Shown here: positions 8,516-9,752 of the stretch, one piece after another | Numbering within the stretch: the stretch's first letter is position 1 | Layout of the letters: each line of letters opens with the position of its first letter | Made by a program: the position numbers and the translations under genes | Notes under the pieces: model-generated | The model's database searches: none | The model's input: only the letters and a program-made list of their open reading frames with translations | Told to the model about the DNA's origin: nothing | Assembly: GCA_963737445.1 (NCBI GenBank) | Contig: CAVTSO010000025.1 | Span: forward strand, 116,870-180,869 | From: an uncultured Actinomycetes bacterium | GTDB lineage: Bacteria > Actinomycetota > Thermoleophilia > Gaiellales > JAICJC01 | Direction of reading: 5' to 3' | DNA: 64,000 nucleotides

Positions 8516-9665
8516 GACTGACAACCTGCTTATTCATGCGGATTCCCATCGCGATGCGGACATGTTCGTCGCCACCGGAGTGGCCGTGGTCGATCCGTTC
8601 ACCTACCTCGAGCTGGACGGGCTGCGCGTGATCGTGGCGAGCGTGCTCGAGGCCGACGTGATCCGTCGCGACTCGCGTGCCAGCGATGTCTGGACGGACG
8701 ACGAGTTCGGCGGCCGCGAGCTGATGGCAAAGGGCTGGAGCTACCACGACGCCGAGATGGAGGTGGTGCGGCGGGTGCTCGAGAAGGCAGGCGCCCAGGC
8801 CGTCGTCGTTCCACCTTCGTTCCCGGTCAGCCTGGCCGACTACCTGCGCGGAAAGGGCCACACGGTCACCCCCGACCGCGAGGTGTTCGAGCGACGGCGG
8901 CGCAGCAAGGACGCGGCCCAGCTGGCCGCGATCAACGTCGCCCAGCGTGCAACCGAGCGGGCCTTTCGCTCGGTGCGGGAGTTGCTCGGCTCGGCAACGC
9001 CACAGGAGTCGGGCGTGCTGATGGCGGGCGGCGAGCAGGTAACGTGCGAGCGCGTCCGCGACGCGATCGTGGAAACGTTGCGCGAGCACGGCTGCGAGGG
9101 CGAGCCGCCGCTGGTCGGCGCCGGCCCCCGCGGTGCGCTGGTGCACGATCTCGGCAGGGGACCGATTCACGCCGGCGAGCCGGTGATCGTGGACATCTTC
9201 CCGCGCCACGCAGCCAGCCGGTACTGCGCCGACATGACCCGCACGTTCTGCTTCGGCGAGGCGCCGGAGCGTCTGGGGGTGATGCACGCCACCGTGCTCG
9301 ACGCGCTGAAGCGCAGCACCGAGGCGATCACCGACGGCGTGGCCGGAACCGTCCCCTGGGAGGTGGCGTGCGACGCGATCGAAGCGGGCGGCTTCCGCAC
9401 CCAGCGGGGGCTGGCCGAAGGCGAGAGCCTGGGCGAGGACTTCTTCCACGGCCTCGGGCACGGGGTCGGGATCGAGGTGCACGAGGCGCCGTACATGGGC
9501 CTCGGCTGCAAGGAGCCGCTGGCTACCGGCGACGTGGTCACGGTCGAGCCCGGCGTCTACCGCAAGGACTTCGGCGGCGTGCGGCTCGAGGACCTGGTGG
9601 TCGTCACCGGCGGCGAGCCGGATGTGCTGACGCAGTTCGACTACGAGCTTGAGATCCGTCCCTAG
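8514..9665 (+). CDS. M24-family Xaa-Pro dipeptidase/aminopeptidase
   Basis: 383 aa. Carries the metal-ligand motifs of the creatinase/prolidase fold (DIFPRHAASRYCADMTRTF, HGLGHGVGIEVHEAPY, VVTVEPGVY). Confidence 0.85.
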   Translation: MTDNLLIHADSHRDADMFVATGVAVVDPFTYLELDGLRVIVASVLEADVIRRDSRASDVWTDDEFGGRELMAKGWSYHDAEMEVVRRVLEKAGAQAVVVPPSFPVSLADYLRGKGHTVTPDREVFERRRRSKDAAQLAAINVAQRATERAFRSVRELLGSATPQESGVLMAGGEQVTCERVRDAIVETLREHGCEGEPPLVGAGPRGALVHDLGRGPIHAGEPVIVDIFPRHAASRYCADMTRTFCFGEAPERLGVMHATVLDALKRSTEAITDGVAGTVPWEVACDAIEAGGFRTQRGLAEGESLGEDFFHGLGHGVGIEVHEAPYMGLGCKEPLATGDVVTVEPGVYRKDFGGVRLEDLVVVTGGEPDVLTQFDYELEIRP

Positions 9666-9752
9666 ATGATTGATTCCACGGGATGCGTGGATGAGGGGCG
9701 CGGGATGTTGCAGACAAGATCCAGCGCCGCGTAGCTCGTGGAATCAATCATC
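9665..9752. mobile_element. miniature TIR-bounded non-coding element, copy A (MITE-like)
   Basis: ATGATTGATTCCACG at 9666-9680 is the exact reverse complement of CGTGGAATCAATCAT at 9737-9751 (16/16 when one flanking base is added). The element fills the gap between convergent stops at 9665 and 9768. The same termini and sub-terminal sequence recur at 13143-13307. Confidence 0.6.

Follow-up and report, generated by a model that had tools for sequence, protein, structure and literature searches.

A palindromic unit between two convergent peptidase genes

This study analyzed a 64,000-nt stretch of DNA, hereafter called the window, in which an 88-nt palindromic unit (copy A) lies between an M24 (Xaa-Pro) peptidase gene and an M16 peptidase gene that converge on it. 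A second, longer unit (copy B) lies between a dienelactone hydrolase gene and an ECF sigma factor gene, which likewise converge. The coordinates of both loci are listed in Table 1.

Table 1. Genes, putative MITEs and their parts at the two loci (window positions)
Feature	Position	Strand	Remarks
M24 (Xaa-Pro) peptidase gene, reads into A	8514-9665	+	PF00557; stop TAG 9663-9665
Left TA target copy of A	9663-9664	none	Inside the M24 stop codon; family-wide flank logo
Putative MITE copy A	9665-9752	none	88 nt, non-coding, apparently a 163-166-nt subfamily member with its centre deleted
Left terminal inverted repeat of A (GATGATTGATTCCACG)	9665-9680	+	G9665 completes the M24 stop TAG
Sub-terminal mini-hairpin of A (CCACG-GGATG-CGTGG)	9676-9690	+	Seen in the sequence itself
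Right terminal inverted repeat of A	9737-9752	-	Repeat comparison
M16 peptidase gene, converges on A	9768-11030	-	PF00675 and PF05193; stop 9768-9770
Dienelactone hydrolase gene, reads into B	12377-13144	+	PF01738; 89% identical to the L120 orthologue
Putative MITE copy B	13143-13307	none	165 nt, full-length member of A's subfamily, hairpin over nearly the whole length
Left terminal repeat of B	13143-13158	+	The dienelactone hydrolase gene stops at TGA (T13142, G13143, A13144)
Right terminal repeat of B (GATGGTTGATTCCACG, one mismatch)	13292-13307	-	Repeat comparison
Right TA target copy of B	13308-13309	none	Single YTAR at the empty site in relatives
ECF sigma factor/DUF6596/TPR gene, converges on B	13307-14480	-	Frameshifted between ~13843 and 13899

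The ends of copy A were defined by ATGATTGATTCCACG (9666-9680), which is the exact reverse complement of 9737-9751, and the addition of G9665 and C9752 extends the match to a perfect 16/16 terminal inverted repeat. A repeat search of the window lengthened the arms to 26 nt, of which 85% are complementary. The TA expected on the right side of A, at 9753-9754, has degenerated to CT. The left end carries TGA triplets at 9667-9669 and 9671-9673, in two frames, and these close, together with the TAG of the M24 gene, all three inbound frames within 11 nt. The predicted fold of A was one long hairpin on the plus strand (-56.5 kcal/mol, z -7.5) as well as on the minus strand (-44.5 kcal/mol, z -6.5).

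The earlier note on this DNA had described A as a unit bounded by perfect 15-16 bp inverted repeats, beginning on the last base of the M24 stop codon, lacking coding capacity, containing the mini-hairpin and TGA triplets in more than one frame, folding as one long hairpin on both strands and having a second copy nearby. Each of these points was borne out by the present analysis, the folds as predictions. The note had also placed the right end 16 nt before the M16 stop codon; the actual gap is 15 nt.

In copy B, the repeat search recovered arms of 68 nt with 72% complementarity, and the terminal repeats match at 15 of 16 positions. At B, the left TA duplication has lost its A and retains only the T, and on the minus strand C13307 and the adjoining TA read TAG, the stop codon of the ECF sigma factor/TPR gene. 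Copy B was also predicted to fold into one long hairpin, at -93.8 kcal/mol (z -7.3) on the plus strand and -106.4 kcal/mol (z -9.0) on the minus strand. Recombination between A and B was considered in view of the CCTG on the right of A and the left of B, and was rejected because the expected reverse-complement relationship was absent.

We compared copy A with longer copies in related genomes. Approximately 30 nt of its left side and 56 nt of its right side align to both ends of a 166-nt element in L081; positions 9711-9759 of the window are 92% identical to L081, and 9711-9752 are 100% identical to L131. The match of both ends of A with the ends of these 164-166-nt copies identifies A as an apparent deletion derivative, namely, a copy of the 164-nt subfamily that lost the centre of its palindrome. 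Another central-deletion form, 82 nt long and similar to A, occupies a different site in L144.

Empty sites in relatives

Syntenic relatives were found without either insertion. The M16 peptidase gene is syntenic in L120, L123, and L124, and an M24 orthologue (P0001 in L119) that is 94% identical has no element downstream. The empty site in L119 consists of the M24 TAG, a C, and the TCA of the M16 gene, reading CCCTAG/CTCAGCC, and the empty sites in L120 and L121 have a 12-nt spacer. The filled site A differs from that of L119, the closest relative, by the element plus approximately 13 further nucleotides and not by a clean element plus TA. The empty site B is a single YTAR common to both convergent stop codons, with the sequence ACCTAGCC (CCTAGCC) in L123 and L124 and CCCTAACGG in L120. 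The window hydrolase ends at the same residue (VLSP before the stop) as its L120 orthologue (VLRP before the stop). Two further candidates for orthologues of site B, L075 and L128, were rejected; their flanks are unrelated, and the copy in L075 ends a different gene.

The flanking genes of A (M24 and M16 peptidases) are unrelated to those of B (dienelactone hydrolase and ECF sigma factor), and the two loci are therefore not a segmental duplication.

A dispersed family sharing its ends with an IS982-family insertion sequence

We scanned a genome collection with GATGRTTGATTCCACG, and the scan returned at least 118 stretches, overwhelmingly from Thermoleophilia MAGs. At least 61 transposase-less pairs with these ends were identified in related genomes. 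The transposase-less elements cluster at 163-166, 197-201, and 214-228 nt, and short forms measure 36-109 nt; soil metagenomes added 17 further distinct sites. Copies at unrelated loci (L075, L069, L137, L138, and L150) share 93-95% identity with copy B, and they adjoin unrelated genes. One MAG carries 214-nt copies on two contigs that are 99.1% identical. Within the window itself, the 13-mer occurs six times when up to two mismatches are allowed, compared with 0.79 ± 0.82 times in shuffled sequences, and 0 of 100 shuffles reached six. A literature search found no described MITE of Thermoleophilia and no IS982 element with a CTAG target.

The same 16-nt ends (5'-GATGRTTGATTCCACG) also bound insertion sequences of 983-993 bp in Thermoleophilia MAGs, that is, in related genomes and not in this window. 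Inverted pairs of this length were recovered in L028 (two copies, 100% identical), L034, L066, L084, L097, L099, and L115. Each insertion sequence encloses one ORF of 289 aa with its stop approximately 16 nt from the right end. This ORF scored 160-161 bits on NF033520, "IS982 family transposase" (160.8 and 160.0; cutoff, 130); it matched PF01609 (DDE_Tnp_1), and the DDE domain PF13612 was also present. Its scores on IS5 models were 33-42 bits, against cutoffs of 110-140, and those on IS4 models were also far below the cutoffs. Among the matches listed, the transposase is present, whole or in part, at 17 loci. A tblastn search of the 64-kb window with the partner transposase revealed no transposase gene with these ends (best E = 1.4).

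No clear likeness between the MITEs and the insertion sequences was detected beyond the 16-nt repeat and the sub-terminal mini-hairpin, or past approximately 30 nt. The mini-hairpin motif (CCACGG...CGTGG or CACGG...CCGTG) occurs at the transposase-proximal end of five of the seven full-length insertion sequences. A comparison of nt 16-55 from each MITE end with the left and right ends of these seven gave scores of 20-26 of 40 on either side, with no signal. Descent of the MITEs by internal deletion from the insertion-sequence copies recovered is not supported by this comparison.

These findings make it very probable that A and B are IS982-derived MITEs, which carry the ends of a ~990-bp IS982-family insertion sequence of Thermoleophilia (Gaiellales and Solirubrobacterales). 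The designation as a MITE/REP-like family in the earlier note is thus upheld in its first part by the partner, the copies, and the flanks, and not in its second, the partner being a DDE insertion sequence and not a REP-associated tyrosine transposase. The further copies at unrelated sites that the note had proposed to seek were found in related genomes and soil metagenomes, as were an autonomous partner with the same terminal repeats around an IS982-family transposase gene, a consistent flank pattern across the family that points to a TA duplication within YTAR, and empty sites at both loci (A in L119, L120, and L121; B in L120, L123, and L124). The two objections that it had anticipated, namely, an absence of further copies and a segmental duplication of the two loci, are both ruled out.

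Target site and stop codons

The flanks of the family almost always read C or T followed by TA/G...C/TA and then G or A, predominantly CTAG/.../CTAG. We scored 34 ends in the metagenome set, in which the search pattern did not touch the termini. Position -1 was G at all 34 ends, -2 was A at 27, -3 was T at 22, and -4 was C or T at 27. The combinations TTAG...CTAA and CTAG...CTAA also occur, and these fit a duplication of TA with G...C belonging to the element. The pattern indicates a probable TA duplication within a YTAR target, and the flank statistics, on which the choice rests, favour TA over CTAG as the duplicated unit. A 4-bp CTAG duplication with ATG...CAT termini was rejected because position -1 is invariant (34/34) and position -4 varies. 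In a few copies, both flanks read CTCAG, which would amount to a 3-bp duplication of TCA. The duplications of the window copies are not intact; the left and right flanks are TA and CT at A, and T and TA at B. Members of the IS982 family in the ISfinder table generally have variable repeats of 3-9 bp and other terminal bases, and a 2-bp TA duplication would be unusual for the family.

In the window, which has a GC content of 70%, CTAG occurs 19 times compared with 174 expected, and YTAR occurs 34 times compared with approximately 351 expected, a depletion of approximately 10-fold. Among the matches listed, at least one gene end lies no more than 60 nt from 49 of the 61 elements, and for 22 of them this holds on each side. 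Of the 71 such gene ends at the listed elements, 33 fall on the junction TAG and 14 on a TGA that the repeat contains or helps to form; in 47 of the 71 genes that read into a listed copy, the stop codon is thus supplied by the duplication or the repeat.

On the basis of these patterns, we propose that the DDE transposase of the insertion sequence, supplied in trans, would bind both ends of a MITE and insert it into the TA of a YTAR tetranucleotide, preferably CTAG, duplicating the TA. In a genome with 70% GC, YTAR would be left mainly as TAG or TAA stop codons and in short spacers, so that the insertions that persist would be found at gene ends. Since the element starts with G and ends with C, the junctions TA/G and C/TA would rebuild TAG from either side, and the two TGA triplets in the repeat would close the other two frames. 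An insertion into a stop codon, including the shared stop at site B, would therefore cost neither protein, and this would explain the place of A exactly between two converging genes. Copy A would then have arisen from a 164-nt copy by deletion of the palindrome centre. Within this scheme, we infer both the mobilization in trans by an IS982-family transposase and neutrality as the reason for the persistence of the copies.

Alternative explanations and the role of the hairpin

The inverted repeat could be a chance palindrome or a protein operator, with the second copy a coincidence. Imperfect palindromes are common in GC-rich genomes, and 75 were listed in the window. The motif, however, is AT-rich in a window of 70% GC and exceeds its expected number there; in other genomes, approximately 80 elements are bounded by the same ends and show a fixed pattern of flanks, and the spacing of the arms ranges from 4 to 960 nt, which would be intolerable for an operator. 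We assign this explanation a negligible probability. The palindromic nature of the units and their intergenic location between convergent genes would also suit REP/BIME sequences, which depend on a REP-associated tyrosine transposase, or palindromes of the IS200/IS605 type moving as single-stranded hairpins, and the strand-specific conservation of the hairpin would fit a single-stranded DNA intermediate. Nevertheless, the units share their ends exactly with a DDE insertion sequence of the IS982 family and not with a Y1/HUH element, they have classical terminal inverted repeats with an apparently duplicated TA, and their length of 88-228 nt is far above the 20-40 nt of REPs. No Y1 transposase adjoined the copies examined, the neighbouring genes of which were inspected unsystematically. 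Such an origin is very improbable.

The location at gene ends could instead reflect function if the elements were RNA structures selected by the host, acting as bidirectional terminators or as stabilizers of the 3' ends of the two convergent mRNAs; the earlier note had suggested either role for A. This proposal is also compatible with the identity of the elements as MITEs and concerns an added function only. The strong hairpins predicted for A and B on both strands argue for it, as does the conservation of the whole-length hairpin in the A/B subfamily, in which 97.6% of pair cells are standard. Compensatory double changes were found in 11 of 56 pairs, whereas shuffles gave 6.2 ± 1.2 and slid controls no more than 4. 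Across the family, mismatches in the arms were G.U on one strand much more often than by chance (summed absolute GU-AC difference, 243 versus 130 ± 14). By contrast, a promoter and terminator scan of 9400-13600 on both strands revealed no promoter and nothing terminator-like, and the stem is followed by CCTGGTCG on one strand and CTAGGGAC on the other; neither direction has the U-tract that an intrinsic terminator combines with its GC-rich stem. The better-folding strand was not preferentially the sense strand of the inbound gene (6 versus 10 and 2 versus 6), and no significant association with the sense strand of the adjacent gene was detected. Rfam 15 gave no match at the gathering score in the whole window and none at E ≤ 1 in 9600-13400. 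Close relatives lack the element at both sites, and the TA/YTAR target together with its rarity fully accounts for the position at stop codons. A host-selected function therefore appears doubtful to us.

The strand-biased, covarying hairpin is a hint of an RNA-level or single-strand-level life of the elements. We consider it improbable, as a more speculative suggestion, that the element depends on the hairpin, or makes use of it, as a structured nucleic acid with strand specificity. If this were true, a hairpin of single-stranded RNA or DNA might mediate the spread of IS982-type MITEs or regulate them; it could be, for example, an element-encoded RNA cut by a double-strand RNase or a folded single strand that pairs the ends for the transposase. 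Alternatively, the genome might have domesticated the MITEs as orientation-dependent insulators between convergent genes.

Significance and comparison with known systems

As IS982-derived MITEs, A and B are a tidy but fairly ordinary kind of element. Their analysis gives a name and boundaries to a hitherto undescribed repeat family of Gaiellales and Solirubrobacterales, which are abundant and almost uncultured soil actinobacteria. Because stop codons lie inside the repeat, such a family can confuse gene calling, and it can break short-read assemblies. It also offers a clean example of how target choice may yield a "harmless" transposon that accumulates between convergent genes.

The Correia elements (CREE/NEMIS) found in Neisseria measure 100-160 bp and are palindromic MITEs with a TA duplication and size variants that arise from internal deletion. 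They are often located at gene ends and transcribed into long hairpins, and they carry promoters and IHF sites and undergo cleavage by RNase III. To our knowledge, they have no autonomous partner, and their sequences are unrelated to those of the A/B family. The SPRITE element of Streptococcus pneumoniae looks like a Rho-independent terminator, U-tract included, and REPs measure 20-40 nt and are associated with RAYTs (PMC3184786); the A/B elements, by contrast, have DDE-type terminal repeats and no U-tract. MITEAba12 of Acinetobacter has a 9-bp AT-rich duplication and weak secondary structure and truncates genes (PMC6382973). Like the A/B elements, it is IS-derived and has stops in all frames, so that inbound genes are terminated at once, whereas insertions of the A/B family hit the stop codon itself and do not alter the protein.

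IS5 of E. coli and its IS5-family relatives use YTAR or CTAG targets (PMC11894529). The transposase described here belongs to the same DDE superfamily and matches IS5 models weakly, and in both systems the insertion occurs at CTAG-like tetranucleotides, which then flank both sides. It passes the cutoff of the IS982 model and not those of IS5, however, and IS5 is reported to duplicate a 4-bp target, whereas the flank statistics here favour the 2-bp TA.

The comparison within the IS982 family is with ISCca4 and MITECca01 of a Cardinium endosymbiont, an insertion sequence of this family and its MITE (PMC9769881). The host is a member of the Bacteroidota there and a high-GC member of Thermoleophilia here, and the repeat sequences are unrelated. 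The A/B family is further distinguished by a TA-in-YTAR target, by G...C termini that rebuild stop codons, and by whole-length hairpins in discrete size classes, with similarity to the parental interior undetectable beyond approximately 30 nt. Both systems share transposase-less elements of approximately 100-240 bp with the inverted repeats of a ~1-kb, single-ORF IS982-family element and a short conserved segment adjoining the left repeat on its inner side, present in insertion sequence and MITE alike. In both, the persistence of the MITE presumably depends on intact parental copies.

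An IS982-family insertion sequence shares the terminal repeat of elements A and B

We searched one genome per prokaryotic species (596 Gb) with the terminal repeat GATGRTTGATTCCACG, and at least 118 matching stretches were identified (L001-L118; higher L numbers denote syntenic relatives or soil-metagenome contigs). Because several hundred chance matches are expected in 596 Gb for a 16-mer with one two-fold position, isolated single matches in unrelated phyla are meaningless. Among the matches listed, inverted pairs occurred almost exclusively in MAGs of Thermoleophilia (Solirubrobacterales, Gaiellales, Thermoleophilaceae, Patulibacter, and Conexibacteraceae). 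Pairs 983-993 bp apart were present, among the matches listed, in L028 (twice), L034, L066, L084, L097, L099, and L115, and every one of them encloses a single 289-aa ORF that has a DDE_Tnp_1 domain and scores 160-161 bits against the NCBIfam model NF033520 "IS982 family transposase" (cutoff 130); at least 17 loci carry this transposase, whole or partial. The search also revealed at least 61 MITE-size pairs at unrelated sites, 36-369 bp apart and without coding capacity, the lengths of which form clusters at 163-166, 197-201, and 214-228 nt plus a tail of shorter ones. The further copies and the autonomous partner with the same terminal repeat that the earlier note had proposed looking for therefore both exist, the partner as 983-993-bp insertion sequences.

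The A/B family is an IS982-family MITE, new and unnamed. Of the MITE/REP-like nature that the earlier note had proposed, the MITE part holds, apart from the decayed duplications of A and B themselves; the elements lack the defining features of REP/BIME sequences, and that identity was rejected. Two insertion sequences in L028, 2,018 bp apart, are 100% identical, and one MAG carries, on separate contigs (L007 and L090), 214-nt MITEs that are 99.1% identical; both findings indicate recent activity in some genomes. The 993-bp copies in L028 (3342-4334 and 6353-7345) lie in direct orientation, each with CTAG flanks, in a composite-transposon-like arrangement, and a 355-aa ORF (2246..3313) is located directly upstream of the first.

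Structure and position of elements A and B

Features of the window (positions of the whole stretch)
Feature	Position	Strand	Remarks
Sequence resembling a lone element end after TA(G)	2316-2336	minus	TAGTCGGTTGATTCCAGG; 13-mer, 2 mismatches; upstream of a DtxR-like gene start near 2299
M24 peptidase ORF	8514..9665	+	PF00557; TAG stop 9663-9665
Element A	9665-9752		88 nt
Sub-terminal hairpin of A	9676-9690		CCACG-GGATG-CGTGG
M16 peptidase ORF	9768..11030	minus	PF00675/PF05193; stop 9768-9770
409-aa ORF	11074..12303	minus	between the M16 peptidase and dienelactone hydrolase genes
Left junction of B	13140-13146		CTG/ATG
Element B	13143-13307		165 nt
ECF sigma/DUF6596/TPR gene	13307..14480	minus	frameshift within 13843-13899

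The ends of A, G9665-ATGATTGATTCCACG-9680 and 9737-CGTGGAATCAATCAT-C9752, are perfect reverse complements, and in the repeat search the arms reached 26 nt with 85% complementarity. The claimed mini-hairpin and TGA triplets in more than one frame were both found, the terminal repeat holding two TGA in different frames. Because the M24 stop codon ends at 9665, the first base of A is indeed the last base of that codon; the M16 stop codon is close to the other end, at a distance of 15 nt rather than the 16 nt first reported.

The second copy, claimed to lie 3.4 kb away, is real. This element, B, has 68-nt arms with 72% complementarity and falls in the 163-166-nt class, and copies sharing 93-95% identity with it are present in L075, L069, and the soil-metagenome contigs L137, L138, and L150, in each case beside unrelated genes. 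In L075, a perfect GC-rich stem distinct from the MITE adjoins it (CCCCGCGCGGC-GTGT-GCCGCGCGGGG, 4165-4200) and looks like the convergent gene's own terminator. A derives by central deletion from the subfamily of B: the two ends of 164-166-nt copies (L081 and L131) are matched by ~30 nt at its left and ~56 nt at its right, with 100% identity to L131 over 9711-9752. A comparable 82-nt form occupies a different site in L144. There, at 1852-1975, a tandem duplication of the final 13 nt and 10 nt of flank (GAATCAATCATCTAGCGCAGGAT, twice) comes after the centrally deleted MITE.

In the 64-kb window, neither an IS982-type transposase nor copies other than A and B were found. The core 13-mer (at most 2 mismatches) occurs 6 times in the window versus 0.79 expected, a number reached in 0 of 100 shuffles. 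The lone end near the DtxR-like gene may be a solo-repeat remnant; 2-mismatch matches are, however, near chance level (0.79 expected per window).

Target site and stop codons

In the genome set, CTAG is present on both sides of almost every element. Because the search pattern for that set contained the terminal G, we re-examined the flanks in a metagenome set retrieved with TTGATTCCACGGGATSCGTGG, which touches neither the termini nor the flanks (34 ends, 17 distinct sites). Counting outward, the flank carried G at position -1 in 34/34 ends, A at -2 in 27/34, T at -3 in 22/34, and C or T at -4 in 27/34. The combinations TTAG...CTAA and CTAG...CTAA were observed, which are mirror-symmetric and not direct repeats. 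These counts and combinations indicate that the terminal G and C are part of the element, and the 16/16 repeat obtained by adding one flanking base in the earlier note is borne out. The flanks suggest TA as the duplicated target and YTAR as the preferred site. A few copies (L031, L052, and L100) are bordered by CTCAG at both ends; the duplication would there be 3 bp, TCA. The TA pattern is family-wide; at A and B the duplications have decayed, and A is flanked by TA (left) and CT (right), B by T (left) and TA (right). At several independent sites (L065, L069, L144, and the left junction of B), CTG/ATG replaces CTAG/ATG; the duplicated TA has lost its A, and TAG ATG A becomes TGA TGA with the in-frame stop kept.

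With a G at its start and a C at its end, the element forms junctions reading TA/G and C/TA, so that a TAG is remade for genes entering from either side; the terminal repeat supplies TGA in the remaining two frames. Among the matches listed, 49 of 61 elements have a gene end within 60 nt, 22 of them on both sides, and 33 of 71 gene ends use the junction TAG, 4 a junction-spanning TGA (as with the hydrolase gene at B), and 10 a TGA within the repeat. In the window (70% GC), YTAR occurs 34 times versus approximately 351 expected from base composition, a roughly 10-fold depletion, and CTAG (19 versus 174) and TA dinucleotides (630 versus 1404) are also scarce. Several of the remaining YTAR/CTAG sites are stop codons of clear genes; the confident ORFs of the window end in TGA (40), TAG (17), and TAA (4).

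The stop-codon habit of the element is fully explicable. In the best-supported account, which we infer, an IS982-family DDE transposase would mobilize the non-autonomous element in trans, insertion would occur into the TA of YTAR, and copies would be retained at neutral sites, chiefly stop codons, which are rebuilt by the element.

Empty sites in relatives

Syntenic relatives without A (L119-L121) and without B (L120, L123, and L124) were found, as the earlier note had suggested looking for. At site B, L123 and L124 read ..ACC TAG CC.. and L120 reads ..CCC TAA CGG.., one YTAR in each providing overlapping stops for the two convergent genes. B occupies exactly this shared YTAR, and each window gene retains its own stop: the hydrolase stops at the same residue position in the window and L120, and the C-terminus of the sigma factor ends on a TAG formed by C13307 and the duplicated TA. 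The sigma-factor gene matches its L120 orthologue at 97% identity over the first 194 residues and continues in another frame to TAG 13307-13309, and the gene is thus either misassembled or a pseudogene.

The M24 protein best matches annotated Gaiellales, the closest being 94% identical (L119), and by this protein the window comes from an uncultured Gaiellales-like bacterium. Between the M24 TAG and the M16 TCA, L119 has a single C, and L120 and L121 have a 12-nt spacer, versus the element plus a 15-nt spacer in the window. On this comparison, the empty state of site A is convincing, yet it is not a clean "element + TA" difference. The 409-aa ORF has no counterpart in L120, where the M16-hydrolase gap is 80 nt, and L123 has two other small genes in this gap; gene content between the MITE sites thus varies among relatives.

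A strand-biased hairpin

Structure prediction gives one long hairpin for A and for B, whichever strand is folded (A, -56.5 and -44.5 kcal/mol; B, -93.8 and -106.4 kcal/mol; z -6.5 to -9). No Rfam family matches A or B, the terminator scan revealed no U-tract and no terminator-like site around them, and the element does not have the makeup of an intrinsic terminator. The bidirectional terminator or mRNA-stabilizing function put forward in the earlier note is a hypothesis. In a subfamily alignment of 18 members from approximately 16 sites (window 13144-13306, minus strand, and 17 loci), the whole-length stem is kept, with standard pairs in 97.6% of pair cells. Two-sided changes were observed in 11 of 56 pairs (42 cells), versus 6.2 +/- 1.2 pairs (15 cells) after shuffling and no more than 4 in slid controls, and the five genome copies alone gave the same result. 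Because much of this covariation separates two sub-lineages, it represents few independent events.

We further compared arm mismatches by foldback alignment, independently of RNA folding, in the MITE-size elements of L001-L118. Transition-type mismatches are enriched well above chance for G.U on one strand (summed |GU-AC| 243 versus 130 +/- 14 by chance; 12:0, 12:1, and 20:3 in single elements), and folding energy differs between strands by up to 48 kcal/mol. Neither this bias nor the compensatory changes track the direction of adjacent genes. Site-by-site selection for a 3'-UTR hairpin was rejected as the cause of the bias, because the strand that folds well shows no preference for being the sense strand of the inbound gene (6 versus 10, and 2 versus 6). 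The bias instead looks like a trait inherited from master copies. The covarying, strand-biased hairpin exceeds what two inverted ends require; an RNA-level role, a single-stranded transposition step, and strand-biased repair are possible causes.

Comparison with known systems

Our literature search found no earlier description of such an element in Thermoleophilia. MITEs derived from the IS982 family have been described in Cardinium (ISCca4 and MITECca01; PMC9769881), and CTAG-type targets are classical for IS5 (PMC11894529). MITEAba12 carries stop codons in all frames (PMC6382973), and the repeat and junction of the A/B family likewise provide them.
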